64,000 nt of DNA from an uncultured bacterium (GTDB lineage Bacteria > Bacteroidota > Bacteroidia > Bacteroidales > CAIWKO01), in the NCBI GenBank assembly GCA_903862465.1, contig CAIOYH010000163.1, positions 7,289-71,288 on the forward strand, read 5' to 3'. Shown here in pieces: positions 10,911-63,576 of this stretch. The notes below the pieces were generated by a model, which ran no database searches, was not told the origin of the DNA, and saw only the letters and a list, made by a program, of their open reading frames with translations. The stretch's first letter is position 1; every line of letters begins with the position of its first letter. The position numbers and the translations under genes were made by a program.

Positions 10911-11264
10911 TCAACAAATTTCGGGAATACAACTGCCCACTTGTAATAACCATGTGGCTATAATGGGCAATATGAAATGGGTTGAAGGTTTGGGTTTCGG
11001 AGGTAGCTCTACCAAAAGAAGCAAATCGCCGCAGTGCATAAATTCGCCCGGCGATATTTGGAGCGTATTGGCTATAATCATCATCGTATCGAATTGGATG
11101 TTCATTTTTCCATGCTCTATCAAACTCAAATTCGAGCGAGGAATGCCCGAAAGCTCGCTAAAATGCTCTTGTGTGTACTTTTTATCACATCTTAGCTCAT
11201 AGAATCTGTTTCCATAAGCTATACTTTGCGTCGGAAACAGAATTGGTTTGCCGTTTCTTTCCAT
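10911..11264 (-). CDS. XRE-family helix-turn-helix transcriptional regulator (C-terminal part uncertain, possible frameshift)
   Basis: HTH_3-like core YELRCDKKYTQEHFSELSGIPRSNLSLIEHGKMNIQFDTMMIIANTLQISPGEF. The tail after PGEF looks unlike protein sequence, and another frame stays open down to 10795. Confidence 0.6.
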   Translation of the reverse strand: MERNGKPILFPTQSIAYGNRFYELRCDKKYTQEHFSELSGIPRSNLSLIEHGKMNIQFDTMMIIANTLQISPGEFMHCGDLLLLVELPPKPKPSTHFILPIIATWLLQVGSCIPEIC

Positions 11265-11486: not shown

Positions 11487-11820
11487 TTAGGCTTCGGCAA
11501 GCAACTTAGGGGCTTCGGAGAGAGACTCAGAGGCTACTTCGAACGACTTAGTGGCTGTGGAGAGCGAATTAGAAGCTTCGGAGAGCGAATTAGCGACTGT
11601 GGCGAACGACTTAGCTGCTAAGGATAGAGAATTAGCGACTGCATCGAACGACTTAAAGGCTTAGGCGAGAGAATTAGCGACTGCGGCGAGAGAATAAGAG
11701 GCTGAGGAGAGAGAATCAGAGGCTGCGGCGAACGACTTAGGGGCTTCGGAGGGAGAATCAGAGGCTTCGGAGAGCGAATTAGAGGCTTCGGAGAGCGAAT
11801 TAGGGGAAGAATTGCCCTCC
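11487..11820. repeat. 21-bp tandem array #2, 16 units (consensus TTAGAGGCTTCGGAGAGCGAA)
   Basis: Unit starts at 11506, 11527, ... 11800, 21 bp apart; the first unit is 19 bp. Two interleaved unit subtypes end in GAGAGCGAA or CGAACGAC. Confidence 0.95.
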
Positions 11821-11933
11821 GAAATGAAACCGCCTCATAATGAAGCAATTTAATGTAGATAAAAGTGGGTTTATACGCAAAATGGAATTATCAATTAAAT
11901 AAAATAAATGTTTCACTAAAAAACCTAATTATT

Positions 11934-12548
11934 ATGAACACAATTAAATACAGTTATTCAAAACTAGCCCAAGGCACTTTTCTCGAAAAACTTGGCTTTA
12001 TTATTTTTTCATGTACCGACAACGTCAACTTCCCCACATTGGTCGTAACTGTTGCTCTTATTATTGCCAAAAAAGAAGCATACGAAGAGCAATTAGACAA
12101 GTCGAAAGCGGGAGATCATCAAGCCACCACCTTGGCTCGGAAATACAGAAAAGAATTGGAGTTGATGTTGAAAAAGAATGGAATCTACATCAATTTTACT
12201 GCCGATGGAGACATAACAAAGTTAATTTCTAGCGGTTATGATTTGGCTAAAATTCCGGTAAGAACACCTCGTCCGGAAATAGAAATATTGCCATCGTCGC
12301 AACGCGGTGTAGCAAAAGTTATCATTCAAAAAGGTGAAAAGGATGTTGCTTATCAAGTGGAAACACATGCCGACCCCATTCCACCTTTGCCTGCCGACCA
12401 ACGTTGGCAACGGCAACCTATGTGTACAAGACATTATCAATCCATTTCGGGGATTCCTGTTGACACAAATATGTGGTTACGCTATTATACGGTTTCTCCT
12501 GATGGCGAAATCGGACCAAAAGGACCCTTTAAATTCAAAATTTTATAA
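11934..12548 (+). CDS. Hypothetical protein: helical N-terminal part plus Fn3/Ig-like C-terminal domain (paralog of 49772..50434)
   Basis: ATG 11934 (MNTIKYSYSKL); the track start is the upstream GTG 11865. It shares an architecture with 49772..50434: ..SSGYDLAK / ..RNGYGVGK, then a Pro-containing linker, then beta-rich G.VAK.I..K..K.Y.V. Confidence 0.65.
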   Translation: MNTIKYSYSKLAQGTFLEKLGFIIFSCTDNVNFPTLVVTVALIIAKKEAYEEQLDKSKAGDHQATTLARKYRKELELMLKKNGIYINFTADGDITKLISSGYDLAKIPVRTPRPEIEILPSSQRGVAKVIIQKGEKDVAYQVETHADPIPPLPADQRWQRQPMCTRHYQSISGIPVDTNMWLRYYTVSPDGEIGPKGPFKFKIL

Positions 12549-12669: not shown

Positions 12670-12785
12670 ATGGTTACATTGTTGGATGGTTCTATTGTTG
12701 TTGGTTTAGTAAAGGTGTTGTGGTTAGCACTTGTTTTTTTTGGCGTGTTGACTTTAACCTATAAAATTAATGGGTATGTTCAAAA

Positions 12786-27941: not shown

Positions 27942-28844
27942 ATGTTATTTGCCTCTATTGATATCGGAACAAACGCTGTTCGTTTGTTATTTTCAAATGT
28001 TTATCTTCGCGATGAACAAATTTATGCTGAAAAAGCTTCCATCATACGCATCCCGATACGTTTGGGCGAAGATGTTTTTTCTATAAACTATATTTCTGAA
28101 GAGAAAATAGACCTTTTATTAAAAACCATGCGTGCCTTTAAACTGTTGATGGATGTTTACCGACCTCTTTCCTACATAGCCTGCGCCACTGCTGCCATGC
28201 GTGAAGCTTCCAATAGCGATGAGGTGGTCAGAAGAATTAAAGAAGAAGTGGGTATTGACATCAAGGTGATTAGCGGCAAGGAAGAAGCCGACATCGTTAC
28301 GGCAAGCAATCATGTGGTTTTGAAAGAGCCATTTAAGTACAAAATGTATGTGGATGTGGGCGGCGGAAGCACCGAAATTTCGCTTTTAAATCATCAAGGG
28401 CTTGTAGCATCAAAATCGTTTAAAATCGGAACCATTCGCTATTTAAAAAATAAAATAGATGAAAAGGAATGGGCAAAGATGCAAGATTGGTTGCTTGAAT
28501 TTAAAAAGGACTTTGGCAAGATTTATTTGGTGGGTTCGGGCGGCAACATCAACAAAATAACCAAAATGTATGGCAACAGAGATGCTTTTATGATTGAAAA
28601 GGAAGAGTTGATGAAAGCCTATGAGCAATTGAGCAAATTGACTTTAGCCGACCGCATCGAAATGTTGGGTTTGCGTCCCGATAGAGCCGATGTTATTGTG
28701 CCTGCGGCTATTATATTTATCAAAATAATGACTTGGATACGGACAGAAGTTGTGTATGTGCCTAAAATCGGATTGGCAGATGGATTGATTTATAAAGGTT
28801 ACTACGAATATCTTAAAAATAGTCCGGTTGAAAAATTCTTTTAA
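27942..28844 (+). CDS. ppx: Ppx/GppA-family exopolyphosphatase
   Basis: MLFASIDIGTNAVRLLF, ATAAMREASN and VDVGGGSTEISL are ASKHA/Ppx-GppA motifs. The start lies 1 nt after the preceding stop. Confidence 0.85.
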   Translation: MLFASIDIGTNAVRLLFSNVYLRDEQIYAEKASIIRIPIRLGEDVFSINYISEEKIDLLLKTMRAFKLLMDVYRPLSYIACATAAMREASNSDEVVRRIKEEVGIDIKVISGKEEADIVTASNHVVLKEPFKYKMYVDVGGGSTEISLLNHQGLVASKSFKIGTIRYLKNKIDEKEWAKMQDWLLEFKKDFGKIYLVGSGGNINKITKMYGNRDAFMIEKEELMKAYEQLSKLTLADRIEMLGLRPDRADVIVPAAIIFIKIMTWIRTEVVYVPKIGLADGLIYKGYYEYLKNSPVEKFF

Positions 28845-29088
28845 TGGCACCACATGGATTCACAGCTATTCTACAGCCGTGTGTAAACGAGATATGTTCG
28901 GTATCAACTCCGAAACGCATGTCATCGTGCGTGCTCAATTCATCATCAGCTACGATGCGCCTTGGATTGGACAATATCGAACACCGTGAATGTATCCTAT
29001 TGGCGGATTTCGTTCCTATTACATTAGATGTACAAAAACGAATATACGGAACGGCGAAAAACACATCGAAGGTAGCTAAAAGCATGCC

Positions 29089-29352
29089 GGCTACGCCTAG
29101 GACCACAATGGCGACGCCCAGGACCACAATAGCGACGCCCAGGACCACAATGGCGACGCCCAGGACCACAATGGCGACGCCCAGGACCACAATGGCTACG
29201 CCTAGGACCACAATGGCGACGCCTAGGACCACAATGGCGACGCCCAGGACCACAATGGCGACACCCAGGACCACAATGGCGACACCTAGGACCACAATGG
29301 CTACGCCTAGGACCACAATTGTTACGCCTAGGACAACAATTGCTTTAGCTAG
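29089..29352. repeat. 21-bp tandem array #3, 12 near-identical units plus a partial unit (consensus GGCGACGCCCAGGACCACAAT)
   Basis: Unit starts at 29089, 29110, ... 29320, exactly 21 bp apart, with only 1-3 substitutions per unit. The array is visibly more GC-rich than its flanks and sits between convergent genes. Confidence 0.95.
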
Positions 29353-38461: not shown

Positions 38462-38462
38462 T

Positions 38463-39896
38463 TTACTTCTTTTCTTTTTTGTTTTCCCCGGGATGAAGTA
38501 TTTCGTCCAAAACCGCTTCAATATTTCCACTTGGGAGTACGGCAGGGCATTGAATATATTTGCCATCAGCACCTATCAACACAAAAGAAGGGTAGGAATA
38601 TACCCCGAATTTTTCTAACAAGTCATAATCATTATTGAAATGTAGAAATGTCCATTTATATTTTCTGTCACGAGCTAAATATGCCATATTAATATTCTCC
38701 CGATCAACTGAAATGCTAATAAACTCGACATCATCATGATACTTCTCGTACAGTTTTTTTATCAACTCCATTTCGTCATTACAGTCAACGCACCAACTAG
38801 CATAAAAATTCAAATATACTATCTTGCCCTTATAACTACTTAATTTAACCAAACTGTCGTTTGTATTACTTAAAGCGAAATCAGGTGCTGCAAATCCTTT
38901 GTCAAAATGCGTATATTGCCAAATCATATTTCTAGCAATGAGTTTATGCGTATCAAATTTGCTTGTGTTCGACAATTGCTTAAGAACTTCAAGAATAGCT
39001 TTCTTGTTGAAATTTGAAGAGGCAAACAATACATCCAATGTCTTCAGAAAAACAATCTCCCGAAGCTTTTCATTTTTCAACAAAGTATCCTTCCCTAAAA
39101 CATCCAGAGCCTCAGCGCAACTTCGATTTGTGTTTACAGGGACCATCAAATCGCTTAAATTAACTTGAAGTGTCAAGTCTTCAAAATAATTATCAAAGAG
39201 ATTGCTTAGAAAAGTCATATACTCAACGTTATCATACAATATGGGCTTCTGATAAATATAATCAATCAGTAACTTCCGATTATCATTATAATTGGTTAGC
39301 AATTTCAGTGATGCCAAACGATATTTCAAATAAGCATTAAAGAAGTCATTATTAGCTAACGCGAAGGTGTCCTTCATGGCAAGTAAAAAAGTATCCAATT
39401 TGTAAAGGATTCTTTGTGTTTTCATCCAAAATATATTGTCTTTGACGAAACGATTGTAATTAATATTGAGCCTTTGTATAAGCTTATTCAAATCGTTTTT
39501 ATCAGCGGTCAAAACTTTAATGTAACACGTCAAGGGGTTGAGGTTGTAATTTATTCTATCAATCTTCTGATTGAAAATTAAGTTTTTTATTTCGATAAAA
39601 AGGTTTTGATTAGGTTCAATATAAAGCTCACCAGTGTAATATTCTATATGAATTATTGCGAGAGTTGTTGATGGGATTTTACATGTAAGCTCAAAGTTTC
39701 CGGCTGAATCTATCACAGTTTTAGCTAGTAGTTGTTCAGTAAACGTCAAATTGTCCGCATAAGATTTTATCGTGATAGTTTTGCCGCCTGCTTCCTTTGC
39801 TATACCTTTTATTATAACAGTCTGCCCAATAGCATTACTAAAAAACAATACCAATAAAAATAGCCTGAGATAAACAAGAAATGAATGAAACTTCAT
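38463..39896 (-). CDS. TlpA-like thiol:disulfide oxidoreductase (thioredoxin fold) with a long N-terminal domain
   Basis: APDFALSNTNDSLVKLSSYKGKIVYLNFYASWCVDCNDEM contains the WCxxC thioredoxin motif. An N-terminal signal/anchor is present. Confidence 0.8.
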   Translation of the reverse strand: MKFHSFLVYLRLFLLVLFFSNAIGQTVIIKGIAKEAGGKTITIKSYADNLTFTEQLLAKTVIDSAGNFELTCKIPSTTLAIIHIEYYTGELYIEPNQNLFIEIKNLIFNQKIDRINYNLNPLTCYIKVLTADKNDLNKLIQRLNINYNRFVKDNIFWMKTQRILYKLDTFLLAMKDTFALANNDFFNAYLKYRLASLKLLTNYNDNRKLLIDYIYQKPILYDNVEYMTFLSNLFDNYFEDLTLQVNLSDLMVPVNTNRSCAEALDVLGKDTLLKNEKLREIVFLKTLDVLFASSNFNKKAILEVLKQLSNTSKFDTHKLIARNMIWQYTHFDKGFAAPDFALSNTNDSLVKLSSYKGKIVYLNFYASWCVDCNDEMELIKKLYEKYHDDVEFISISVDRENINMAYLARDRKYKWTFLHFNNDYDLLEKFGVYSYPSFVLIGADGKYIQCPAVLPSGNIEAVLDEILHPGENKKEKK

Positions 39897-39942
39897 AATA
39901 AGTTTATTAGATAACGCCTATTCGCTATATTTTATTTTACGA

Positions 39943-40401
39943 TTAAATTTTGATACGCTCAGGTATAAACTGTCTAATACCCCCCCCATTTCTGTAAATG
40001 TCACGAACCACTGATGAATTCAATGCATTATATTCTGGCAAAGCTAGTAAAAAGACAGTCTCAATTTCCGAATAGATTTGTTTATTCATCTGACCGATAC
40101 CTCTCTCGAATTCAAAATCGGCGGACGTTCGCAATCCTCTTAGAATATAGGTCGAATGCTTGAAACGACAATAGTCTATCGTTAGCCCAACGTAAGAATC
40201 AATTTCAATCTGAGGATAATCTGAAAAAACCTCCATAAGCCATTGAATCCTTTGTTCCAATGAAAAAAGATATTTCTTTTCAGAGTTCACACCTACCGCC
40301 ACTATTATAGTATCGAACAAACCTAAACTCCGAAGAATGACCGATTCATGACCTTTCGTTATTGGGTCAAATGAACCCGGGAAAACTGCAATACGTTTCA
40401 T
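39943..40401 (-). CDS. coaD: Phosphopantetheine adenylyltransferase
   Basis: MKRIAVFPGSFDPITKGHESVI (T/HxGH nucleotidyltransferase motif) and ..ILRGLRTSADFEFE.. are typical of CoaD, as is the ~150-aa length. Confidence 0.9.
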   Translation of the reverse strand: MKRIAVFPGSFDPITKGHESVILRSLGLFDTIIVAVGVNSEKKYLFSLEQRIQWLMEVFSDYPQIEIDSYVGLTIDYCRFKHSTYILRGLRTSADFEFERGIGQMNKQIYSEIETVFLLALPEYNALNSSVVRDIYRNGGGIRQFIPERIKI

Positions 40402-40565
40402 AAAATTATATTTTAGGCAAAACTACAAAATGTTTTTTACAAATAGCACGTCTTTTAATTCTTTTGAAAAAACAAGATTACATCTAGTCATCTTTAAATG
40501 GAGCGAAATAGGTGTTTTGCCATTTTATTATAATCTCTAAAGATTGTCAAACAATGGATAAAAAA

Positions 40566-40593
40566 ATAGGATTTAGTATTAGCTAAATCCTAT
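40566..40593. terminator. Hairpin terminator downstream of 40626..41156 (minus strand)
   Basis: ataggatttag / ctaaatcctat 11-bp stem flanked by an A-run and a T-run. Confidence 0.6.
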
Positions 40594-40625
40594 TTTTCAA
40601 AAACAATAAAAATGTTGTATTCTTA

Positions 40626-41156
40626 TCAAGGAGCTTGCGTAAGTGCTGGATTTTTTGTAGATACACTTTCTGAACCTTGGTTTTGAGCAGTTGTTACACC
40701 GTGAATTAAAATCGGAACCATAACAGATTGTGTTACTTCGTTTGAAGCATAAGAAACCGTAAGTGGTGTGGACTTTTTATCAGCTTTAAAGTATAAACAC
40801 GTATGATAATCTCCTGATGGAATAGGTTTGTTATGATAGCGTTGAACAATCACGATTTGTGATTCGCCTGGAGCCAAAGTCACTTTGCGGGGAAAGATTT
40901 TTAAATATAAATCAGCGGATTCATTTCCTGCATCAGTTTTATCTACAGGGATGTAACTGCCATCTTCTGCGAGTTTGTATTGAACAAAAGATATAGAATA
41001 AACCACTGTATCTTTTTCCGTATTCACTAAATTGAGTTCTTCTTTTTGTTTGGTATCATCGAACTCAATTCTTGGGGTAGTCGTTGTGCTTTGAGCCCAT
41101 AACCTGAGGCTAGGACCTGACACAAGAACTAATAATATTAAAAAGAATCGTTTCAT
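40626..41156 (-). CDS. Small secreted protein, unknown function (possibly an Ig/PapD-like beta-sandwich)
   Basis: Signal peptide MKRFFLILLVLVSGPSLRLWAQ. The beta-rich segment VTLAPGESQIVIVQRY is reminiscent of chaperone/usher-type folds, but only weakly. Confidence 0.6.
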   Translation of the reverse strand: MKRFFLILLVLVSGPSLRLWAQSTTTTPRIEFDDTKQKEELNLVNTEKDTVVYSISFVQYKLAEDGSYIPVDKTDAGNESADLYLKIFPRKVTLAPGESQIVIVQRYHNKPIPSGDYHTCLYFKADKKSTPLTVSYASNEVTQSVMVPILIHGVTTAQNQGSESVSTKNPALTQAP

Positions 41157-41271
41157 AATGTTGTTTATTTTGGATTGTTTTTGAAATTATCTGCCAAATT
41201 CATTTCAGCTTCTTTCGCCAACAAAAATTTCTACTTTTATAAATACAAAAGTACTACAAGGCGGAAAAATA

Positions 41272-41349
41272 TCGTGTAGGACAATTCCTAAATTCGTGTA
41301 GGACATGTCTGATTTTAGAGTAGGTATAATCCTACACGCTTGTAGGACG
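41272..41349. promoter_or_regulatory. Cluster of four GTAGGAC-core motifs (two 12-bp direct repeats, one inverted copy, one further direct copy) upstream of 40626..41156
   Basis: tcgtgtaggaca occurs at 41272-41283 and again at 41294-41305 (22-bp spacing). gtagg-tataat-cctac forms a hairpin at about 41319-41337. gtaggac recurs at 41342-41348. Confidence 0.5.
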
Positions 41350-41565
41350 CCATAATTTAGTATGCAGGTATTCAGGGTTCTGATTTTTTTTAGTATGTTT
41401 GCTTGATAAGAGCAAAAGTGAGGGTGAGAATAAATAGTGATAAAAAATGAAAAGCGGTGGTAGAAAATAATAAATTAGTTTGAAGAATTCTTATAAAAAT
41501 TTAGAAAGGGAAAGTATAAATGAAAAGGTGTTGGAGGGATCTTTGAGATTCTAAAAATTGTCCAT

Positions 41566-43086
41566 CTACACGTTTTCCGTTGGTAACAAATTCAACTTGA
41601 TTGGACAGTTTACACAATTATAATCAAAGTTGGACTGCATTTTTTTCTGTCGCACGTGTGTGAAAGCATCATTAAAGAAAACGTCATAAAGTGAAGTGTT
41701 TTCGTTGAGTATTCCCATGGAGTTGTTATAATAGGAGCAGGGCAAAATTTTCTGTTGATCAACGATCATAATTTCATTAAAAGGGCGCAAACAAGATGCC
41801 TCCAATAAAAATCCGAAATCCTTATCCTCTCCTTTGGCATAAAACGTTTCTTTGGATTCAATGATTTCCTCATCTTGATTATCAGCCTTCACATTTCTAA
41901 AATCTGACAAATCCATGTTCACAATTCCATCAGACACATATACTTCTTCCGTTTCAAAAGGTTCAGGCAAGCGCACATCTAAATTATATTTTCGCGATTC
42001 ATCCACTATCAATTGCCTAAAATAGTTGTATTTTGCTTTATTATTGCTAAGCATTTCCTCGTGTTCACTAAAATAGATATTGCCCACCACGTGTCTAAAG
42101 TCAATTATACCAACCCCCAATTCAGCACACATCACGACAAAGGCAACTGCTTCCTCGATATTTGAATTCATCAACACAAAATCCATAAATAGTAAGGGAA
42201 ATGTTCGTTTAAATCGTTTTTTCAAATCGCGCAATGCCATTATATTGCTTAATATCAAATCATAATTGGCTCCCGCACGAATCTTCTCTAAAGTTTGTTT
42301 CTTCACACTGTCAAAGGATAATATTACGTGCGAACAGTTGTTTTCAATGATAATTTTCCTCGCCTTGGAATTTAGCAACATGCCATTGGTACACAACCCT
42401 ATCTCCATGTGTGGATAATTCTGATGCAACATGCGCATAATATCGTCAAAATGCTTCGACATCAGCGGCTCAAATCCGCAGGAAAGCATGATGTGTTTCA
42501 CATAAGGTGCAATATCATGCAAATAATGCTGCAATTCCTCGGCAGTAATAGCTTTTGTGGGTTGCGAATAAATTTCCTGCTCCTTGTAATGACACATGAT
42601 GCATTTCAAGTTGCACTTATTGGTGATATCCATCCGAACAGTAAGCCAAGGATGCGTCTTCAATGTCTGCTTAAACTTCTGCTCAAGTAAAGATTGAGTA
42701 GCAATAGTTTCATGTTTTTCATCATCCACCTCAATTTCTCTAATCTCCGATGGATTGAGGTCTAACATTAGTGGGATTTTTTTTGATATGCCATCAGATA
42801 ATTCCACCACAACCTCTAATTCCAAGCCTCCACGCAAATCAATTGCTTCCTTTTCGGCTATGATGCGAAATCCGCTATGATTATTATCCGAAAACCCCTT
42901 AAAATGTTGTGCCACATCTGCCCTCAACAAACCGTAATCGAAATGATAGCCTGCTGAATCTGCGTTGACAACTCGTATATTTATAATTTTATGAAAACAC
43001 AACAGCCATCCCTCAATTTGATTCGACTGTAGCACATTATCCGCTTTGGCAGGAAAATCAATGCAATATAGGAAGTTGATTATCAT
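41566..43086 (-). CDS. Radical SAM enzyme with a SPASM/twitch-like C-terminal Cys cluster and an extra ~150-aa N-terminal domain
   Basis: ITNKCNLKCIMCHY is the CX3CX2C motif. C-terminal cysteines occur in CLRPFNEIMI..ILPCSYY and NCVNCPIK. The N-terminal IEGWLL..RADVAQHF segment resembles domains seen on polysaccharide-modifying enzymes. Confidence 0.8.
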   Translation of the reverse strand: MIINFLYCIDFPAKADNVLQSNQIEGWLLCFHKIINIRVVNADSAGYHFDYGLLRADVAQHFKGFSDNNHSGFRIIAEKEAIDLRGGLELEVVVELSDGISKKIPLMLDLNPSEIREIEVDDEKHETIATQSLLEQKFKQTLKTHPWLTVRMDITNKCNLKCIMCHYKEQEIYSQPTKAITAEELQHYLHDIAPYVKHIMLSCGFEPLMSKHFDDIMRMLHQNYPHMEIGLCTNGMLLNSKARKIIIENNCSHVILSFDSVKKQTLEKIRAGANYDLILSNIMALRDLKKRFKRTFPLLFMDFVLMNSNIEEAVAFVVMCAELGVGIIDFRHVVGNIYFSEHEEMLSNNKAKYNYFRQLIVDESRKYNLDVRLPEPFETEEVYVSDGIVNMDLSDFRNVKADNQDEEIIESKETFYAKGEDKDFGFLLEASCLRPFNEIMIVDQQKILPCSYYNNSMGILNENTSLYDVFFNDAFTHVRQKKMQSNFDYNCVNCPIKLNLLPTENV

Positions 43087-43098
43087 AAAAAGCCTATC

Positions 43099-45249
43099 TT
43101 ATTTTAATCCGAAATTATGTACACCTAACGAAAGATTCGGATTATAACATGGGTCGTTCTCCACATAGTTTTTCCATTTCTTTCTAAAAAGATTCACTTC
43201 TTTGACGTGTTTTTTATAGGATTCGCTTGTACTGTGTGGATGTCCACGCGACATAGATTCGTAGTGATACAACTCACAATGGGGGACATATAAGTTGCGA
43301 TAGCCCGCTTCAAGCACCTTCAAACAAAAATCCACATCATTATACTCTGTGCCAAAACTTTCGTCAAAGCCACCTACTTCATCAAAAACTTTTGTACGCA
43401 CCATAAAACAAGCACCGGTAACAGCAGAATAGGTGTTCAATATGTTTACATAATTAAAATAACCCGGACCCTCACGGTCTTCGCCAACCAAGACATGACC
43501 TGCTGCGCCTCCAAGCCCAATAATCACCCCTGCATGTTGAATCGTATCATTGTCATATAAAAGCTTAGCTCCTACCACGCCCACTTCTTTCCGTTGCGCA
43601 TGTTCCATCATCGCTTCTAGCCAATCAGGAGTAATCACTTCCGTGTCATTATTCAGCAAAAGCAAGAATTCGCCCGTTGCATGTTTTCTTCCTAAATTAA
43701 TCAAACGAGAAAAATTGAATGCTTCTTTGTCTTGAATACATTTAAAAGAAATAGCATTCTGTTTTGTGTATTGTTTCACTAAATGAAAGAATTCCTTTTG
43801 GTCGCTGTTATTATCAATCAAAATGATTTCAAAATTTCGATAGGTTGATTTCTTTTCAATGGATCTTAAACACTTCTTTAATAGCTCTGCTTGGTTTTTG
43901 GAAGGAATAATGATGCTCACCTTAGCGTTTCTATTCACCAATCCGAAACGAATACTATACCCCCTGAAACTATCTAAGAAATCGACCGTAGCTTCCATGC
44001 CGCGACGTCTCATGGCTTCGGTGAGTGCCATCTGAGCTGCTCGATATGCATAAGGCTTCACAGCTTCGCTCATGGCGGCACTTTCGCTGTGGATGCGCCA
44101 ATGATACAGCACTTCAGGGATATGAATCACATTATTATAGATTTCTGTGTAGCGTAAAATCAAATCATAATCCTGACTGCCTTCATAGCCCACGCGCCAT
44201 CCACCAACATCACGAAGTTGTGCAGTTTTGAATACACACACATGACCAAGATAGTTTCTAGAAAGCAAGTTGTCAGGACACCAATCCGGTTTGAAATGTG
44301 GGTCGGAATGCAATCCCCATTCATCAATTTTATCCTCGTCAGAATAAATCAAGTCAGCGCCGCCTTTTCTGTTGATAGCTTTGGCTATTTCATAGAGCGC
44401 ATCTTCGCGCAGAATATCATCATGATCCATCAACACAGCATATTCACCTGTTGCTAATTCGAGTGCAGAGTTTGATGCGCGTGAGATATGTCCGTTTTGT
44501 TCTCGATACACCACTTTGATGCGTTGATCTGCTTTGCAATATCTTTCAAGGGTTTCTCTGATTTCAACGTCCGTAGAATTATCATCAGCAATACATATTT
44601 CCCAATACTCATAAATCTGACCAATAATCGAATCTAATGCTTTTGTAAACAAATCAATTCGAGGATTATACACAGGCATCACAATGCTAAACAAAGGGCG
44701 TTGATTGAAGCTATTGATACTTCTTTTGTGTTGTTTGATGATTTCTTTGTTCAACCTTTTTCGCATCAGATATTGCGAATAGTGAGCCGTCGTGGCAAGA
44801 TAATTTCCCACCACTTCAATGATCACCACCTTACGAGTTTCGAACATAAGATATAGCGTACGAAACACTTTGGTCAGAAACAAGCGAAAAATGCGTCCGC
44901 CGCGTTTGAAGATATATTGAAATAAAATAGTAAAGAAGTTTCGCTTCTTTCCTTTATTTACATTTGATCGGAGTCTGCTAAGATACAAATAGAAAAACTT
45001 TCGGAGTTTTACTAAGGTGCTGTTTTCGAGTATAGCCAATTGTTGAATCAACTTGTCCATGCTTCGCAAAGCCGTGTCAAGCTGTTTGTTCAATTCCTCT
45101 ATCTCTCTTGATGCTCGCTTAAACTGTTTTTTCCAATAATGTGGGTCGCCTTCATCTCCCAAATCAGATGAATCAACGGATTCATTCAGTTTTAGTTTAT
45201 CCTTTTCACGGTCTTTTTTACCCTGCATATTATATTCGCTTCGCATCAT
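43099..45249 (-). CDS. Dual-domain GT2 glycosyltransferase with an N-terminal coiled-coil region
   Basis: It has two GT2 cores. The first is FSIVMPVYNPRIDLFTKALDSIIGQIYEYWEICIADDNSTD...DHDD. The second is VSIIIPSKNQAELLKKCLRSIEKKSTYRNFEIILIDNNSD...NNDTE. The N-terminus is charged and heptad-like. Confidence 0.85.
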   Translation of the reverse strand: MMRSEYNMQGKKDREKDKLKLNESVDSSDLGDEGDPHYWKKQFKRASREIEELNKQLDTALRSMDKLIQQLAILENSTLVKLRKFFYLYLSRLRSNVNKGKKRNFFTILFQYIFKRGGRIFRLFLTKVFRTLYLMFETRKVVIIEVVGNYLATTAHYSQYLMRKRLNKEIIKQHKRSINSFNQRPLFSIVMPVYNPRIDLFTKALDSIIGQIYEYWEICIADDNSTDVEIRETLERYCKADQRIKVVYREQNGHISRASNSALELATGEYAVLMDHDDILREDALYEIAKAINRKGGADLIYSDEDKIDEWGLHSDPHFKPDWCPDNLLSRNYLGHVCVFKTAQLRDVGGWRVGYEGSQDYDLILRYTEIYNNVIHIPEVLYHWRIHSESAAMSEAVKPYAYRAAQMALTEAMRRRGMEATVDFLDSFRGYSIRFGLVNRNAKVSIIIPSKNQAELLKKCLRSIEKKSTYRNFEIILIDNNSDQKEFFHLVKQYTKQNAISFKCIQDKEAFNFSRLINLGRKHATGEFLLLLNNDTEVITPDWLEAMMEHAQRKEVGVVGAKLLYDNDTIQHAGVIIGLGGAAGHVLVGEDREGPGYFNYVNILNTYSAVTGACFMVRTKVFDEVGGFDESFGTEYNDVDFCLKVLEAGYRNLYVPHCELYHYESMSRGHPHSTSESYKKHVKEVNLFRKKWKNYVENDPCYNPNLSLGVHNFGLK

Positions 45250-45463
45250 GTAAATGCAAAAATACTAAATTTATAGAAAGTAGAAGATTAATGTACAACA
45301 AAAAAATGTTAATCAAGGTTAACGGGAGTTCTATAAATTGCTTTTTCATCGTTGGACTTTAATTTTTAAAATGCTCATTTACCTTAGTAAACTCCGCTTT
45401 TAAAAATCTTGTCCGCCTCGAAAAATCTAATTTATAGAATCCCTCTTGCGTCTTGTTATCTTC

Positions 45464-45500
45464 AAAAAAAAGGATAAGTACATTGCAGTTGTATTCATCC
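45464..45500 (-). terminator. Candidate rho-independent terminator of ilvE
   Basis: On the minus strand, ggatgaatac..gtacttatcc forms an imperfect 10-bp stem followed by T8. Confidence 0.5.
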
Positions 45501-45544
45501 TTTTGCAAATGATATTTGTCTTTTATACAAAGACATCCGAAAAA

Positions 45545-46564
45545 CTACTCAATCACATGTGTCCACCCAAACGTATCAGGCTCATCACCATATTGTATGG
45601 CACGCAAACGATTGTATAATTTCGTGGAAACCGGACCTGCATTACCATCAGGGCAATATTCATATACGGCTCCTGTGTCACGATCTTGTATCTTTTTGAT
45701 AGGCGAAATAACGGCAGCAGTGCCGCATGCACCCACTTCGTCGAAATCGGCTAATTCTCCGACAGCTATGGAACGCAACTCAACCTTCATGCCCATATCT
45801 TCAGCCAAAGCACGCAGACTCATGTTGGTGATTGATGGCAGAATAGATTTTGATTGTGGTGTGATGTAACTATTTCCTTTTATGGCAAAGAAATTGGCGG
45901 GACCCGCTTCATCAATAAATTTTTTTTCATGGGCATCTAAAAAGATAGCAGTGGCATAGCCTTCTTTGTGTGCACGTTGTCCTGCAATCAAACTTGCCGC
46001 ATAATTGCCACCCACTTTGATATGTCCTGTTCCCAAAGGAGCAGCGCGATCAAAATCTCGAATAATTTGCACATTCACCGGTTTGAATCCTTCTTTGAAA
46101 TATGGACCAACGGGGGTAACAAAAATCATAAATAAGTATTCATCAGCAGGCTGCACACCTACTTTGGGTCCTGAACCTATCAACAAAGGTCGAATATACA
46201 ACGAAGAACCGGTGTCTTGGGGTGGTACGTAACCTATGTTAAGGTTCACCACAAGTTCCATGGCTTCTTTGAATAATTCAGTAGGAACGGGTTGCATCAT
46301 AATACCTTCTGCCGACCTGTTGAGGCGTTTGGCGTTTTCTTCCCAACGAAAAACGCGAATTTTATCATCTTTACATCTGAAAGCTTTCAATCCCTCAAAA
46401 GCCTCTTGTCCATAGTGCAAACACGTGGCTGCCATGTGGATGTTAACGGTTTCGGACGAGGATACTTCTAGTTTGCCCCATTGTCCATTGCGCCAATAGC
46501 AGCGCACATTATAATCGGTTTTTTGATAACCGAACGGAAGATTTTTCCAATCAATATTTGACAT
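45545..46564 (-). CDS. ilvE: Branched-chain amino acid aminotransferase (class IV)
   Basis: 339 aa. HYGQEAFEGLKAFR, RPLLIG and GNYAASL are typical of long-form IlvE. Confidence 0.9.
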   Translation of the reverse strand: MSNIDWKNLPFGYQKTDYNVRCYWRNGQWGKLEVSSSETVNIHMAATCLHYGQEAFEGLKAFRCKDDKIRVFRWEENAKRLNRSAEGIMMQPVPTELFKEAMELVVNLNIGYVPPQDTGSSLYIRPLLIGSGPKVGVQPADEYLFMIFVTPVGPYFKEGFKPVNVQIIRDFDRAAPLGTGHIKVGGNYAASLIAGQRAHKEGYATAIFLDAHEKKFIDEAGPANFFAIKGNSYITPQSKSILPSITNMSLRALAEDMGMKVELRSIAVGELADFDEVGACGTAAVISPIKKIQDRDTGAVYEYCPDGNAGPVSTKLYNRLRAIQYGDEPDTFGWTHVIE

Positions 46565-46690
46565 AATTATTGCTCTCTCTTTAGTGAATAAAAACGGGCA
46601 AATTTATACATATATTCAATACAAAAAGTAATCTGTATGAAATTTTTTTATAGGAATTTCAATTGCATTGATTTTCTTATTCTTATACAT

Positions 46691-46715
46691 AAAAAAAGAC
46701 GGGTTTTAGCCCGCC
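46691..46715 (-). terminator. Candidate rho-independent terminator of the Fe-S protein gene
   Basis: On the minus strand, ggcggg-ctaaaa-cccgtc (6-bp stem with one G-U pair) is followed by T7. Confidence 0.55.
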
Positions 46716-46748
46716 TTTCTAGTGATTTGTTTGCGTTTTATTACGAAT

Positions 46749-47613
46749 TTATACCCATTCTTCTTGAAGAATTTTACCACTTATGCCGATGACAACCGCT
46801 TTGATGGGCACTTTGCGTGTAGCTTTCTGCATAGCAGCTTTTGTCATTTGTAGAATACCTCCGCAGCAGGGGACTTCCATCATCAATACCGTGAGGGTAT
46901 TCACATTGGCATCGTCAATCATTGCAGTGATTTTTTTCTACATAGACTTCCATGTTTGAATCCAATTTCGGACACGCGATAACCAAGGATTTCCCTTTCA
47001 GGAATTCGTTGTGGAAATTGCCATACGAAAAAGCGACGCAATCGGCTGCTACAACCACATCCGCATTGCGAAAGTAGGGAGCATTCGGATTGACCAAATG
47101 CAATTGTATGGGCCATTGGCGCAATTGTGAATCAACCACGGCATTGTTAGCTGTTGCTGTTGAAGTTTCTTCTTGCCTCATGTCCATCATTTTTGAACCC
47201 GGGCAACCACCATGATGGTGTTCATTTTGATTGTTGTGTGTTTCCATTTTAAACTCATTTATAATTTCTGAATAAATATTTTGTTCTGACAAATAGGTAA
47301 TCGCTTCTTTCACGTATCCCAACTCGTTGTGTTCGCGCAGATGGCGCAAATGAGCCAAAACAGTGAGCTTTCCTTCTTTTGAAATCCGTTCGATAACTTT
47401 CAATTCACTGTAAGGTTCAGCTTCACGTTCCTCTAATATAATAGCTCCTTCGGGACAATCGCCTATGCAGGCGCCCAAGCCGTCGCAAAACAGTTCGCTG
47501 ATTAGGCGAGCTTTGTTGTCAATAATTTGAAGTGCGCCTTCGTGACATCCCATGACACAAAGCCCACATCCCGTACATTTTTCTTCGTCAATTTTAATAA
47601 TTGTTCGCTTCAT
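46749..47613 (-). pseudogene. 4Fe-4S dicluster-domain protein, frame broken by one extra base in the T7 run at 46931-46937 (A7 on the coding strand); probably a homopolymer sequencing error
   Basis: ATG 47613 gives MKRTIIKIDEEKCTGCGLCVMGCHEGAL..CDGLGACIGDCPEGAI, two CxxCxxCxxxC(P)-type ferredoxin cluster motifs. Removing one A extends ..VYVEK into ITAMIDDANVNTLTVLMMEVPCCGGILQMTKAAMQKATRKVPIKAVVIGISGKILQEEWV*. That adds 63 stop-free codons ending at 46749. Confidence 0.8.
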
Positions 47614-47883
47614 TTTTGTTGTAATTTTAAATAGGTAATCAAGTACCCAAAGGTATATATAAATACGGACATAGAGCACATATAGTATTCGTATTTCGTT
47701 CTAAATTATAAATAACTAAAAAACAGCTATCAGCAATATTAATTTATAAGCATTTTGTTGAAAAGAAGGTGGATTTTGATGAAATTCCTGCTTGAATTCT
47801 GTCAAAAAAACATCATATTTGGAAAGATAGCGGAAAAAAGCTTGCAAAATCGTGTCTGTTTTCACGATTTCAAACTGCAGCAA

Positions 47884-48297
47884 TCATGCAGTTGGGGTGA
47901 TGTAATCGCTCAGTTTTTGAGAGGCAAAATAATCGTGAAGTTCGGTGGTCACCTTGTGAACAATTCCATTCATCAAACATTTATCCATAGGGCAAACTTG
48001 ATTTTCAAAAGGACAATCATTTAAGGACATTTCTCCTTCAATTAACTCATATATATTCAAGAGTGTGATTTCATGGGCAGGTTTGCCCAACACAAAACCC
48101 CCCGACGAACCACGAGTGGATATAACATAATTGTTTTTCACCAAACGTTGCATGACTTTGGCAATATGATTTTTTGATGCACCCGTCAACTCGGACAGCG
48201 TTTTGACGTTTGTATTATTTCTTTGTGATTTTGCAATGATTACCATAACATGAATCGCAATAGACGCTGCTTCGGAAATACCTACGATACGAGCCAT
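47884..48297 (-). CDS. Rrf2-family transcriptional regulator
   Basis: MARIVGISEAASIAIHVMVIIAK...ELTGASKNHIAKVMQRLVKNNYVISTRGSSGGFVL is an Rrf2 wHTH. Three C-terminal Cys residues (CPFENQVCPMDKC) could bind an Fe-S cluster. Confidence 0.85.
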   Translation of the reverse strand: MARIVGISEAASIAIHVMVIIAKSQRNNTNVKTLSELTGASKNHIAKVMQRLVKNNYVISTRGSSGGFVLGKPAHEITLLNIYELIEGEMSLNDCPFENQVCPMDKCLMNGIVHKVTTELHDYFASQKLSDYITPTA

Positions 48298-48450
48298 AAG
48301 GAATAGTTTTTGTTATATATAATATATGGTGTGTTTGTTTTCATACTAGAGGATGCCGATGCGCATGATATTTGACATCAAAGATATAGACTTCTGTAAA
48401 GTAAAAGTCAAGCTTGAGGAAGCAGAGGACAAAGGGCGCATAGGGTTATT

Positions 48451-49371
48451 TTATTTTTCGCAATTGGTTTGATAATATTTTTTGGCAGCTTTGTCGCCCA
48501 AGGCGGCGGCTTTGCTGATGTCTTCGCAGGATTCATGTTTGCGTCCTGCGTTGAGTTTGGCGATGCCACGATTGAAATAGGCATCAGAACTTTGTGGTTG
48601 CAGGGTAATCACCACGGTGTAGTCGGCTATGGCAGCATCAAATTCGTTCATTTCGTTATGAATAAATGCCCGATTGTAGTATGCATCTGCGTAGTTGGCA
48701 TCAAAATGTATGGCTTTGGTGTAGTCCTGCATGGCGCGGTCGGGTTGGCTGATCAAATCATAATCGAATGCCCGATTGAAATAAGCTTTCGCCTGCGTGG
48801 AATCTAAAGAAATCACGGCAGTGTAAATCTTTATCGCCATATCATATTCTTCCATTTGGTCATAGAGACTTGCCAACGCCATGCGTCCGGCTATGTTGGT
48901 GGGATAGGTAGCAATAAATTTGCCGAAATCTTTCAGCGCTAGGGAGTCGAGCCCTTCCCTTTGATAGATAAGCCCCCGTTGATAGAAAGCCGTGGCAAAG
49001 TCGGGCTTGACGGCTAGGGCGGCATCAAAATCGAGCAGCGCACTTTTGTCTTTTTCCATGCGCGCATACACCAAACCGCGATTGAGCAAAGCATTGATAT
49101 CTTTGGGATTCAGCGACAAGACTTTGGTGTAGTCCGCAATGGCATTTTGGTCTTGATTCAATTTTTCGTAAGAGATGGCGCGATTGAAATAGGCATCGGC
49201 ATAGTCGGCTTTGAGGGCTATCACTTGGGTGTAGTCGCTCACCGCACCCGCAAAGTCGTTGCTTTGGTATTTGGTGAAAGCACTAACAAACAGGGCGTCC
49301 ACTGTTTGGCTATATGTTTTTGAGCTTATCAAAAATAATATAATGACTAATAATAGGTGTGAGCGTTTCAT
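48451..49371 (-). CDS. Secreted tetratricopeptide-repeat protein
   Basis: ATG 49371 gives MKRSHLLLVIILFLISSKTYSQ. Multiple A.DY...I.L.P..A.AYFNRG TPR units. The C-terminal cap is CEDISKAAALGDKAAKKYYQTNC. Confidence 0.85.
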   Translation of the reverse strand: MKRSHLLLVIILFLISSKTYSQTVDALFVSAFTKYQSNDFAGAVSDYTQVIALKADYADAYFNRAISYEKLNQDQNAIADYTKVLSLNPKDINALLNRGLVYARMEKDKSALLDFDAALAVKPDFATAFYQRGLIYQREGLDSLALKDFGKFIATYPTNIAGRMALASLYDQMEEYDMAIKIYTAVISLDSTQAKAYFNRAFDYDLISQPDRAMQDYTKAIHFDANYADAYYNRAFIHNEMNEFDAAIADYTVVITLQPQSSDAYFNRGIAKLNAGRKHESCEDISKAAALGDKAAKKYYQTNCEK

Positions 49372-49771
49372 TTGAAATAATTTCGGCAAAGTTACTATAG
49401 ATTTTTAAATAGGCAATCAAATACCTATTTATTTTTTTAATTGTTTTTTGGAGGGGGAATGGGGAAGCGATTAGGCATTGAGGATTAGGGGGATTAAGGG
49501 TCATATAATAGAGAGATGTGTAGCAAAAAACGAAATTTACAGTAAATAAATATGTTACGTTTTTGATGTTGCAGTATATTATCAAAAAAGTTGATTTATT
49601 ATGTGAATAAAATGTTTTTATTGTAATAAGAAAAGATGACAAAAAATTCATATAAACCGATAAATATCAGTGACATTAGCGTACTTGGATTGATATAATT
49701 TGTAATTTTGCCATTGTTATAAGCAATAAAATAAGTAATTCAATTTTATAAACATTTAAAACCATAAAATC

Positions 49772-50434
49772 ATGACAGATATTAATACAGATATCTCAGT
49801 TGCTGCAGTGCAATTAGTTTCAAAGAGACCGGTGCATGTTGCAGACAACATTACAATTTTTAGTACTACTTTAGATAAATTGGAAAGCAGCGGCGACAAT
49901 CTTGTTAAGCCTGCTGACATGATTATTTATCGTGGTAACGTCACCACCTTAAGCACCTGTCAAGATGATATGAGAGGTGGTGCTGACGATAAAAAACCCA
50001 AGAGAGACAAAGCTTATAGCGTATGTTTTGGCGACAACCGGACGAATATGCTTAAAGTTGAAGGAGCCTTGATTGGCATACCTAACCCTATGGATAAGGA
50101 AGCCCTAATCTTGAGAAATGGTTATGGAGTGGGAAAAGAACATGGTCCGATATCCAATCCGGATATTAGCATAAAAAATAAGAAAAACCAACCGGGCACT
50201 GTTGTTGCTAAAATAAAAAGCCCTAGCAAGACCAAATCGTATTCTGTTGATTGGCAAAGCAGCACAGATAATGGTGAGACATGGACACCCCATAATTCTA
50301 CTCCTGTTTGTAAACGGGAACTAAAAAACATGCCTTTAGCTTCACAACTGATAGTGCGCGCTAGAATTACGATTGGAAGCAACGACCCTGAAGGTTGGAA
50401 AGTTTCTAGTACTTTAGTAGTAGGAGCAGTATAG
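49772..50434 (+). CDS. Hypothetical protein with an Fn3/Ig-like C-terminal domain (paralog of 11934..12548)
   Basis: Same layout as 11934..12548: helical N-terminal half, RNGYGVGK, then PGTVVAKIKSPSKTKSYSVDWQSSTDNGETW.. No signal peptide. Confidence 0.65.
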   Translation: MTDINTDISVAAVQLVSKRPVHVADNITIFSTTLDKLESSGDNLVKPADMIIYRGNVTTLSTCQDDMRGGADDKKPKRDKAYSVCFGDNRTNMLKVEGALIGIPNPMDKEALILRNGYGVGKEHGPISNPDISIKNKKNQPGTVVAKIKSPSKTKSYSVDWQSSTDNGETWTPHNSTPVCKRELKNMPLASQLIVRARITIGSNDPEGWKVSSTLVVGAV

Positions 50435-50522
50435 CAGCTTCATCGCTCTGTTTAACTTCTTAGATATAATTGTGGTAGGTGTTTCATAACGCGAAACACT
50501 TTCTTCCAATTATGGAAGAGCC

Positions 50523-50669
50523 GATTCCGTTCATGACGGGGAAGATTCCATTCGTGACGGAGCAGATTCCGTTCATGACGGGGAAGATTCCGTTCATGAC
50601 GGAGCAGATTCCATTAACGACGGAGCTGATTCCATCAACGACGGAGCTGATTCCATTCGTGACGGAGTA
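50523..50669. repeat. 21-bp tandem array #5, 7 units (consensus GATTCCGTTCATGACGGRGMA)
   Basis: Unit starts at 50523, 50544, ... 50649, 21 bp apart. Each unit contains the dyad ccgt-N5-acgg. Confidence 0.95.
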
Positions 50670-50897
50670 TCCTCAAAATATCTAGCAGCAATAGTTGATT
50701 TATTTATAGCGATATGATTAAAAATATGTATCTTTGTGGGGGATTTGTATCAGCAAATAATATATTAATTGATTCGGAAATATTTTTAACTACTTCAATT
50801 AAATAATTTGAAGTGGATCATAAAGATGATTTTGAATAAAAAGTTGGTGTTGCTGTTATTGAATCTCTTCAATATTATAAACTAAAAATAAATTATT

Positions 50898-51611
50898 ATG
50901 AAAGACAAATCAACGTATTTAGTAATTGTCGTATTCCTTATTTTATCCACTATTAGTTCAACGATATTTAGCCAAGTTTCTCCAAAAGAAAAAAGTACAA
51001 ATAAAAAAGTTCAGCAAGTGTCAAATAAGGCTATTCAAACTGATAGTACAAGAAATAATCACTCTAACAGTCAACCTATTGTAAAAGGAAAAACAACTCA
51101 TATTGCGAAAGCCGGAAAATATCTTAAATTCCCGGTTGATTCAAGATTTTTAGCCATGTGGAATAAATTTGGAGGGCTTAACGGGTTTCTAGGCAGTCCG
51201 ACAGGCAAAACTGATGGAAATTGCCAATACTTCGAATATGGAGTTATGGAAGTTTCACCCAACATTGGGAAAGATGTCGTGCTTATACTATATAATACAC
51301 CATGCGATGTGGTATTTTTGTGGGGATCCACTACTCCCTATAATTATGATAGATGGATTGTAAGATGGTGGAAAGATGCTAATCCGAGTAATAGTCATCA
51401 AGAGGACGTGCCAAATCATAGTGACCGTATGAATGGGACATTTACAACCTCAAGAGGATTTACAGACTATTCTATAATATCTTTTATTGTTGAAGGAGTT
51501 GATTTATCCCTTGAGGGAAGTAATGCGAAACAAGGATGGTCATCACAAATAAGTATCTCTACAAAGAAATTTAGAGATAAACCGGTTCAATGTGATGAAA
51601 AGCCTTTTTAG
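50898..51611 (+). CDS. Hypothetical secreted protein
   Basis: Signal MKDKSTYLVIVVFLILSTISSTIFSQ. WNKFGGLNGFLGSPTG resembles an LGFP-type repeat. Otherwise I do not recognise it. Confidence 0.65.
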   Translation: MKDKSTYLVIVVFLILSTISSTIFSQVSPKEKSTNKKVQQVSNKAIQTDSTRNNHSNSQPIVKGKTTHIAKAGKYLKFPVDSRFLAMWNKFGGLNGFLGSPTGKTDGNCQYFEYGVMEVSPNIGKDVVLILYNTPCDVVFLWGSTTPYNYDRWIVRWWKDANPSNSHQEDVPNHSDRMNGTFTTSRGFTDYSIISFIVEGVDLSLEGSNAKQGWSSQISISTKKFRDKPVQCDEKPF

Positions 51612-63512: not shown

Positions 63513-63576
63513 AAATATTTTTTTGGCAAAGATAAACAACCTTGGGGAGATATACGACGTTTTCTTATGCTAAATC

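Follow-up and report, generated by a model that had tools for sequence, protein, structure and literature searches.

A 21-bp tandem repeat array paired with an Fn3-like protein gene in an uncultured Bacteroidales bacterium and its relatives

The 64,000-nt stretch of DNA analyzed here, referred to below as the window, originates from an uncultured bacterium of the order Bacteroidales (lineage CAIWKO01; GenBank assembly GCA_903862465.1, contig CAIOYH010000163.1, positions 7,289 to 71,288 of the forward strand) and carries a tandem array of 21-bp units that starts 83 bp past the stop codon of a gene encoding a 220-amino-acid (aa) protein with an Fn3-like domain. The gene and the array constitute a conserved, fast-diversifying two-part module: in our comparison sample the gene-array association is universal, and the array is hypervariable in both sequence and copy number, with the strict 21-bp register kept. 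As an explanation that we favor tentatively, the array would be a phased multi-site platform bound by the adjacent basic protein, with which it would form a co-evolving pair. The module and its immediate surroundings comprise the following features:

49739..49753, plus strand: motif TTCAATTTTATAAAC, 18 nt before the ATG of 49772..50434, a putative promoter-like or start-context element
49772..50434, plus strand: family gene, 220 aa, with a predicted N-terminal strand, four helices and a C-terminal Fn3 domain
50479..50519, plus strand: two adjacent hairpins in the gap between gene and array, read from the sequence and seen in RNA folds
50518..50667, no strand assigned: the array (A5), 7.1 units of 21 bp, consensus GAGCAGATTCCATTCATGACG
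50729..50736, plus strand: exact match to the Bacteroidetes-type -7 box consensus, TAtcTTTG, 62 bp after the array; a consensus match only

A seven-unit array of 21-bp repeats downstream of 49772..50434 had been described in an earlier reading of the window made from the sequence only, and Tandem Repeats Finder confirmed it at 50518..50667 (period 21, 7.1 copies, 82% matches, 0% indels, score 181). The tandem array is real and not an assembly artefact, because an independent metagenome contig (L004) contains a gene and a 7.1-copy array that are both identical to those of the window; L004 is the sole other sample with the exact gene. The units contain the conserved blocks GATTCC and GACGG, spaced about 10-11 bp, and fall into two subtypes (GAGCAG.. 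and GGGAAG..) with partial alternation. Their within-unit conservation has a 10.5-bp periodicity that accounts for 42% of spectral power (p=0.01, uncorrected), and a conserved core accompanied by a variable segment is a feature of most arrays in the sample. Two other interpretations of the array were discarded: a CRISPR-like one, since the units are contiguous and have no unique spacers between them, and an extension of the family gene into the array by read-through or frameshift, as the reading frame of the gene meets eight stops within the array.

The gene-array association was assessed in 151,262 bases in which each locus is represented once; arrays were counted if they spanned at least 84 bp and their period was 21 bp or one of its multiples. 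This sample includes 15 independent family genes or gene remnants, three in the window and the remaining 12 in further genomes and metagenomes, with protein identities down to ~20%. Each of the 15 has an array with a period of 21, 42, 63, 84, or 105 bp at a distance of 47-175 bp. The sample contains 18 such arrays, 15 located by family genes, one per gene, and three elsewhere. As the background is about one array per 50 kb, the association is not due to chance. The sequence-only reading had suspected a functional link between the protein family and 21-bp arrays, and proposed significant co-location as its test; the link is now strongly supported, with no family member found to lack an array. 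The array is upstream of the gene in 10 of the 15 loci and downstream in five. None of the 15 family arrays departs from a period of exactly 21 or contains indels (0%), at a unit divergence of up to 30-38%, and all of them have 6-16 units. The remaining long repeats of the sample either have periods of 10/20/30, 41, 43, 44, or 125 bp or are in-frame protein repeats (231 and 234 bp). The loci outside the window are arranged as follows:

L001 and L002 (P0002, 44% identity): array downstream, 76 bp from the gene, 11.6 and 13.7 copies
L011 (P0033, 42%): array downstream, at least 7.6 copies, the contig ending inside the array
L006 (P0022): degenerate array downstream
L007 and L008 (P0035): array upstream, 42-bp period, 7.2 and 3.2 copies
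L009 (P0037), L013 (P0039), L015 (P0043), and L016 (P0040): array upstream, periods from 21 to 105
L019 and L022: array upstream, periods of 42 and 21/84
L023-25 (P0047) and L026 (P0045), from the subfamily of 11934..12548: array upstream, periods of 21/63 and 21/84

Comparisons between related loci indicate how the two parts of the module change. In the close relative L011, nucleotide identity to window positions 37694-49439 is 85-90%, and the homology breaks off at 49440; past this point L011 encodes a family protein that is 42% identical, followed by an array with an unrelated unit, GAAACCACTTCTTAAGCTTGA. The gene and the array have been exchanged, or have diverged, as one cassette within conserved synteny; the cassette is flanked by direct repeats (15 nt, 93%) that are about as good as chance would produce in AT-rich DNA. 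In the pairs L001/L002 and L007/L008 the copy number differs between samples and the flanks are identical. A further comparison involves array A2 of the window (described below) and L026, where the genes are 91% identical: the two arrays are colinear unit by unit at ~80% identity, their sole indel is exactly 21 bp, and the final ~70 bp before the ATG are nearly identical. Thus, the array evolves faster than its surroundings with the register kept. Consensus units are alike only within close subfamilies (15/21 positions for L007 and L009, 14/21 for L007 and L019, with a null that rarely reaches 13). A TGA[CA] motif common to the units and a general pairwise similarity of units were considered and dropped, both being mostly at chance level outside close subfamilies.

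The other side of the array is often occupied by a small regulatory gene, of various families, namely LytTR in L001-L003 and the P0045 contig, and weakly in L007, GerE in L009, and XRE in L013, L015, and the window. The flanking regulator varies even between the homologous arrays A2 and L026, and thus the invariant partner of the array is the family gene.

Within the window, all high-scoring non-coding repeats have a 21-bp period. There are five strong 21-bp arrays (745-975, 11489-11803, 29089-29340, 35494-35736, and 50518-50667) with unrelated unit sequences, and three of the five are attached to family genes. The features associated with the other two copies of the module are listed below:

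10911..11264, minus strand: XRE-type helix-turn-helix (HTH) open reading frame (ORF), 117 aa, divergent from A2, identified by reading its translation
11489..11803, no strand assigned: sister array A2, 15 units of 21 bp, organized in higher-order units of 42/63 bp, with its end 130 bp ahead of the ATG of 11934..12548
11934..12548, plus strand: remote paralog, 204 aa, detected with hhalign and reciprocal hidden Markov models (HMMs)
28843..28986, plus strand: truncated third family gene, a C-terminal fragment (HMM E=1.2e-9; BLASTP E=5e-9 to the 220-aa protein)
29089..29340, no strand assigned: sister array A3, 12 units of 21 bp, 93% match, starting 103 bp past the truncated gene

The sequence-only reading had presented 11934..12548 as the only recognizable paralog of 49772..50434 and noted a 21-bp array next to it. 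The adjoining array is present and the remote homology was recovered by profile methods; the paralog is, however, not the only one, given the third copy at 28843..28986. BLASTP of the 220-aa protein against the product of 11934..12548 is insignificant (E=0.22), whereas hhalign aligned the family with the product of 11865..12548 over 164 columns (89% probability, E=2.4e-6), the family HMM found 11934..12548 among the window ORFs at E=1e-5, and the reciprocal subfamily HMM returned 49760..50431 at 4.6e-4. These profile comparisons support 11934..12548 as a genuine remote homolog of the family gene. Its true start is the ATG at 11934, as its homologs are 204-207 aa long. In the orthologous locus of the P0045 contig (L026), the XRE-type HTH gene is replaced by a LytTR gene. 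The third copy is homologous to the family from the exact position of the Ppx/GppA stop codon onward (Ppx/GppA gene at 27942-28844), and the array of this copy is intact though the copy itself is dead.

The AlphaFold2 model of the 220-aa protein, based on an alignment of 17 sequences, has a predicted local distance difference test (pLDDT) score of 89 and comprises an N-terminal strand followed by four helices (~residues 23-115); the C-terminal portion is an Fn3 domain, which contains an Asp-box-like SxDxGxTW motif. With isoelectric points (pI) of 9.3-11, this half is basic in 16 of 17 family members, and its pI is 9.7 in the 220-aa protein. No signal peptide is evident on reading the N-terminus of this protein, for which no predictor was run. 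Type IX secretion sorting domains encoded elsewhere in the window agree with an assignment of the organism to Bacteroidota. None of 18 family members matches Pfam, NCBIfam, or PADLOC, the 220-aa protein has no informative PHROG match, and tblastn with the family found nothing among 72,556 plasmids or in phages, nor did scans of IMG/VR. Foldseek comparison of the model with PDB and BFVD matched the Fn3 half only, to which the PDB sequence profile added only the Asp-box similarity. A word-indexed search of 5.8 billion proteins returned just two clusters, and a full HMMER scan of 1.84 billion representatives gave 31 matches, mostly of 202-242 aa; the family alignments are devoid of any conserved stretch of 7-10 residues.

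The explanation that we favor regards the array as the linked nucleic-acid partner of the adjoining gene, the two together making a self-contained module in which each 21-bp unit would be one binding site. Since 21 bp correspond to two turns of B-DNA, all sites would be exposed on one face of the helix, and cooperative assembly of a sequence-specific protein along the array would be possible. The simplest candidate for this binder is the Fn3 protein, which is basic and has its gene 83 bp away; the protein and the array would then change their specificity together, as Rep proteins and iterons or centromere-binding proteins and their repeats do. The association with the gene, the constancy of the gene partner, co-diversification, the register, the 10.5-bp conservation, the basic Fn3 half, and the evidence against coding all favor the platform, yet it remains for us the leading candidate and less than probable. 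That the array is bound at all, that its binder is the adjacent protein, and that DNA rather than a transcript is recognized are what we infer from this combination, as is any cellular role of the module.

The closest parallels to such a platform are plasmid iterons with their Rep proteins and the centromere/partition pairs (iterons of R6K, RK2, and pPS10; sopC of F; parC of R1), which consist of 17-22-bp direct repeats, or multiples, with a phasing of about two turns. The repeats number from several to a dozen, may be placed on either side of the binder's gene, and co-evolve with the binder. The module resembles the iteron/Rep arrangement in its direct repeats of exactly 21 bp, about two helical turns, adjoining a gene. 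However, Pfam, the PDB profile, and Foldseek revealed no winged-helix domain, and there is neither a ribbon-helix-helix or ParB-like domain nor a partner ATPase. In contrast to the plasmid loci, the module is chromosomal, with synteny to a relative conserved over 11.7 kb, and two intact modules and one remnant are present within 64 kb. Membership in the iteron/Rep class therefore fails for want of a Rep fold and because of the chromosomal location. It is possible, though doubtful, that we are dealing with a new class of Bacteroidota modules, in which a basic four-helix and Fn3 protein is combined with a private 21-nt array, acting as DNA or RNA, as a co-evolving specificity pair. By analogy with type III toxin-antitoxin systems, such a module might be a defense or addiction system guided or neutralized by its repeats and built on an unrelated fold, or it might be a DNA-coating system that uses an immunoglobulin-like fold.

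Several observations weigh against the platform. Two to three arrays of this kind, including 745-975 and 35494-35736, lie more than 6 kb from any family gene. The five downstream arrays are located past a terminator-like hairpin, which a simple autoregulatory operator does not predict. The N-terminal domain has neither a structural nor a profile match, and the model, which the sequence-only reading had suggested searching for DNA-binding surfaces, contains no recognized DNA-binding fold; Fn3 is usually a protein- or glycan-binding fold. The 10.5-bp signal is marginal across all arrays (Fisher p=0.07) and that of 50518..50667 alone does not survive multiple testing. Nor do the missing indels prove selection, because unequal crossing-over alone preserves a 21-bp register. 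Finally, the dyad of 50518..50667 is weak. The sequence-only reading had placed the inverted repeat ccgt-N5-acgg in every unit and had seen in the array a string of phased dyads typical of dimer sites or RNA hairpins. In fact, only three of the seven units contain it and the remaining four have ccat-N5-acgg, with an A.C mismatch on the plus strand and a G.U wobble on the minus strand. When the best dyad register of each array was compared with 300 versions with permuted unit columns, the mean perfect arm of 50518..50667 was 2.67 against 2.59 in the null (p=0.43), that is, at chance level, so the dyad interpretation finds no support in this array. Dyads exceed the shuffled controls in the sister arrays of L019 (p=0.003), L022 (p=0.007), and L016 (p=0.02), which drive a combined p=4e-4 over 15 arrays. 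The asymmetry of G.U pairs and A.C mismatches, used as a test for the transcribed strand, points to different strands in different arrays and gives no consistent answer.

ToxI repeats control ToxN, and by analogy with this type III toxin-antitoxin system the array could be transcribed, possibly processed to 21-nt units, and control the adjacent protein as a repeat RNA; the module would then act as an abortive-infection or addiction system. We consider this unlikely. As in the toxIN, cptIN, tenpIN, and AbiQ/antiQ loci, a protein gene of ~150-220 aa is combined with an adjacent short tandem array, the repeat sequence is protein-specific, and the loci are chromosomal and often found among defense genes; the protein is also basic and diversifies together with its repeat. 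The array is directly upstream, on the same side, in 10 of the 15 loci. Exact -7 boxes (TAnnTTTG) occur on the gene strand upstream of the array in A2 (-95), L007 (-41), and L013 (-53), and none was found between the upstream arrays and the ATG. A terminator-like hairpin is present at the 3' end of the L007 array. Several loci are flanked by defense genes, including a cyclic-oligonucleotide-based antiphage signaling system (CBASS) cyclase with a two-transmembrane (2TM) effector, MmeI, AIPR, a Vsr-like nuclease, and a type II methyltransferase; owing to this proximity, the module may take part in phage defense or belong to a mobile or selfish element.

Most of the published type III features are nevertheless absent from the module. 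Repeat units in the known families measure 31-62 nt and are present in 1.9-5.6 copies (Blower 2012, Table 2; PMC3401426), compared with 21 nt in 7.1 copies at 50518..50667 and 6-16 units in the other arrays. Their defining features are same-strand repeats upstream of the gene, a palindromic terminator before it, and an endoribonuclease of the ToxN/AbiQ, CptN, or TenpN type (PMC3401426). The helical domain and Fn3 of the family protein are unlike ToxN, CptN, TenpN, and AbiQ, and no PADLOC or Pfam model was matched. No consistent terminator separates array and gene: the scanner called one in only one of four upstream-array loci tested (L007, at the 3' end of the array), and hairpins were recognized by eye in L013, L019, and L022, but not in A2 and L016. 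While repeats are usually upstream on the same strand in type III systems, with a single published toxIN locus that has them downstream of the toxin gene (PMC3401426), one third of the module loci have the array after the gene. Among these five is 50518..50667, which follows its gene at 83 bp and lies, like the others, past the terminator-like hairpin of the gene.

Folding of the array region as RNA gives z=-2.75 on the plus strand and z=-4.18 on the minus strand, and much of this signal comes from the two hairpins at 50479-50519, ahead of the array. Hairpin 1 (gtgtttc-ataacgc-gaaacac, followed by tttctt) looks like a terminator for 49772..50434, and hairpin 2 (tcttcca-atta-tggaaga) continues into the first array unit. 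The pattern scanner made no hairpin or terminator call at 50479..50519; a hairpin with a T-run was also seen 3' of the family genes in L002 and L011. No consistent hairpin or wobble strand bias was found across the arrays, and the window contains neither an Rfam match nor a tRNA.

It is rather improbable that the array is a cis-regulatory element, an operator or activator stack for a host or neighboring transcription factor that controls the promoter to its right, with copy number possibly tuning expression in the manner of a contingency locus and the family protein not being the binder. The positions of many arrays agree with such a function: ten end 47-175 bp before the family ATG, just upstream of a conserved promoter-like motif, and an exact -7 box belonging to the next gene follows the ends of the downstream arrays A5 and L002 at about 50-60 bp (TAtcTTTG in the window, TAttTTTG at a similar distance in L002). 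The promoter-like motif, gTATTTTATAACCT, is related to TTCAATTTTATAAAC and is located 15-36 nt 5' of the ATG in most family genes; it could itself be a core promoter. Moreover, small regulator genes (LytTR, XRE, and GerE) flank many arrays, and copy number varies (11.6 and 13.7 units in L001/L002; 7.2 and 3.2 copies of the 42-bp unit in L007/L008). The direct repeats to which LytTR regulators bind have a spacing of about 21 bp, and the arrays are similar to LytTR operators of the AgrA, ComE, and PlnC type in both respects, with LytTR genes near some modules. However, known LytTR sites are paired and not stacked 7-16 times, a number that is unusual for operators in general, there is no LytTR gene near 50518..50667, and the regulator family differs even where the arrays are homologous (XRE in the window at A2, LytTR in the P0045 contig). 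Array A3 lies between convergent genes and has no promoter to serve. The genes 3' of the downstream arrays are unrelated, encoding a secreted 237-aa protein in one case and a methyltransferase in another, whereas the family gene upstream is constant; a metagenome scan with the 237-aa protein gave no match.

A near-copy of TTCAATTTTATAAAC is located at 50868-50882, ahead of the next gene, 50898..51611. The form TTCAAT(T/A)TTATAAAC is shared by 49739-49753 and 50868-50882, 15-18 nt 5' of the ATG of the family gene and of 50898..51611, and may represent either a variant promoter or an element of the start context.

Equally improbable, in our estimate, is a functionless minisatellite inherited with the gene, in which slippage and unequal crossing-over regenerate the repeat and keep its period automatically. 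Unit turnover of this kind would account for fast divergence without off-register indels; the higher-order periods (42, 63, 84, and 105) are typical of neutral satellite evolution, copy number is polymorphic, and A3 persists beside a dead gene fragment. Short intergenic repeats of other kinds are also abundant in the genomes, with periods of 7-16 bp and of 27 and 30 bp (L001, L009, and L015). On the other hand, neutral repeats should often be lost, and an array is present at 15 of 15 loci despite protein identity down to ~20%, full turnover of the units, and placement 5' of the gene in some loci and 3' in others. At every locus the array retains 6-16 units, conserved cores are seen within units, and the other short repeats vary in period, whereas the gene-linked ones always have 21. 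The arrays are similar to variable-number tandem repeats and contingency repeats in the copy-number polymorphism between samples (seen in sister arrays) and in the proximity of many arrays to promoters, and differ from them in a period fixed at 21 bp across unrelated units and in being tied to one protein family. The array cannot be the usual on/off spacer switch, because changes by whole 21-bp units keep promoter spacing and helical phase.

Very unlikely is a small gene within the array for a heptad-repeat peptide (21 bp being seven codons) that works with the Fn3 protein, as the evidence is against translation and no coding signature is present. The candidate ORF at 50479..50685 encodes 68 aa (MFHNAKHFLPIMEEPIPFMTGKIPFVTEQ...) from a GTG start, with an internal ATG at 50512. 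The period is always a multiple of three, and at least one gene-strand frame is open over the whole region in 12 of the 15 family arrays, or in 13 if the single terminal stop of L013 is discounted; gene callers place ORFs over some arrays (94 and 108 aa in L001 and L002, 108 aa in L016, 115 aa in L026), nearly all changes in one frame of A3 are synonymous (14:1; period-3 p=0.006), and some frames resemble a/d heptads, e.g., LKDLTNR/VTNLTIR in L013. However, there is no period-3 conservation overall (Fisher p=0.40) or in 50518..50667 (k=7, p=0.48); the component is confined to A3 and L016 (p=0.04), which are unremarkable because 17 tests were made. Synonymous and non-synonymous changes in open frames number 1:45 in A2, 1:16 in L013, and 3:13 and 6:9 in the open plus-strand frames of 50518..50667, and a hand count from the alignment of A2 with the L026 array gave about 5 synonymous to 35 non-synonymous. 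Stops interrupt all six frames of A2 and all three gene-strand frames of L009; the homologous arrays of L007, L009, and L019 have no open frame in common, and stops in A2 fall at places where L026 is open. Neither a start codon nor a leader or tail is conserved, the ORFs begin and end at the array edges, and the implied peptides are chemically unrelated, several having Pro or Gly in each heptad. Open frames are split 17:17 between the plus and minus strands, and the three of six open in 50518..50667 are as expected, since the unit is stop-free.

We found no curated family or paper that describes the pairing of an Fn3-like family with 21-bp arrays, and the literature yielded nothing relevant on 21-bp repeats in Bacteroidetes. 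If the link is functional, it would represent a compact protein-plus-repeat module undescribed in Pfam, NCBIfam, PADLOC, PHROGs, and Rfam. The module is present in several Bacteroidota lineages, often by defense genes, and diversifies as a unit between near-identical genomes. Comparable systems, such as type III toxin-antitoxin loci, CRISPR, and iterons, have repeatedly provided new biology and tools, and if each protein has its own 21-nt partner, the family would offer a natural series of orthogonal protein-nucleic-acid pairs. On the practical side, gene callers annotate spurious repeat ORFs over the arrays and metagenome contigs break there (L011 and L025).

In a distant subfamily, the family gene is followed by a conserved partner gene of 223-246 aa with a hydrophobic C-terminus, which is 44-62% identical between loci. 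It was located at the following positions:

L007, 3774-4505: partner gene
L009, 3841-4581: partner gene
L015, 3810-4103: partner gene
L016, 3756-4427: partner gene
L019, 3001-3693: partner gene

The partner has no match in Pfam, NCBIfam, PADLOC, or PDB. The gap between the family and partner genes is filled with short 7-8-bp tandem repeats, L018 contains the partner gene without the family gene, and in L009 a 125-bp tandem repeat at 4573-4889 (2.5 copies, 96% identical), with a GC-rich hairpin inside, is located downstream of the partner gene.

The two strong 21/42-bp arrays of the window that have no family gene within 6 kb, 745-975 and 35494-35736 (A1 and A4), also have no family remnant near them; they could serve another partner or be relics. 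The latter array is ~130 bp upstream of the -7 box of a type IX secretion cargo gene, and the 1-kb gap upstream of it is occupied by two small paralogous ORFs on the minus strand (34571-34780 and 34857-35054; 65-69 aa) that share the motif SGQxQKAxxVYKKGxExAE. Just past the terminator of the paralog 11934..12548, a 16-bp tandem repeat, ATGGTTACATTGTTGG, at 12670-12701 resembles ATGGCTATATTGTTGG, present in 2.9 copies at 1606-1652 of L001, an unrelated intergenic region of another genome. Other repeats in the window include a cluster of 7-bp arrays at 63572-63792 (AAATACC x10 and CTTGGAT x5) with a 41-bp repeat of 1.9 copies, and in-frame repeats of 231 and 234 bp (2.9 and 5.5 copies) at 2410-3078 and 15897-17180, inside ORFs of 891 and 1401 aa, which look like ordinary domain repeats.

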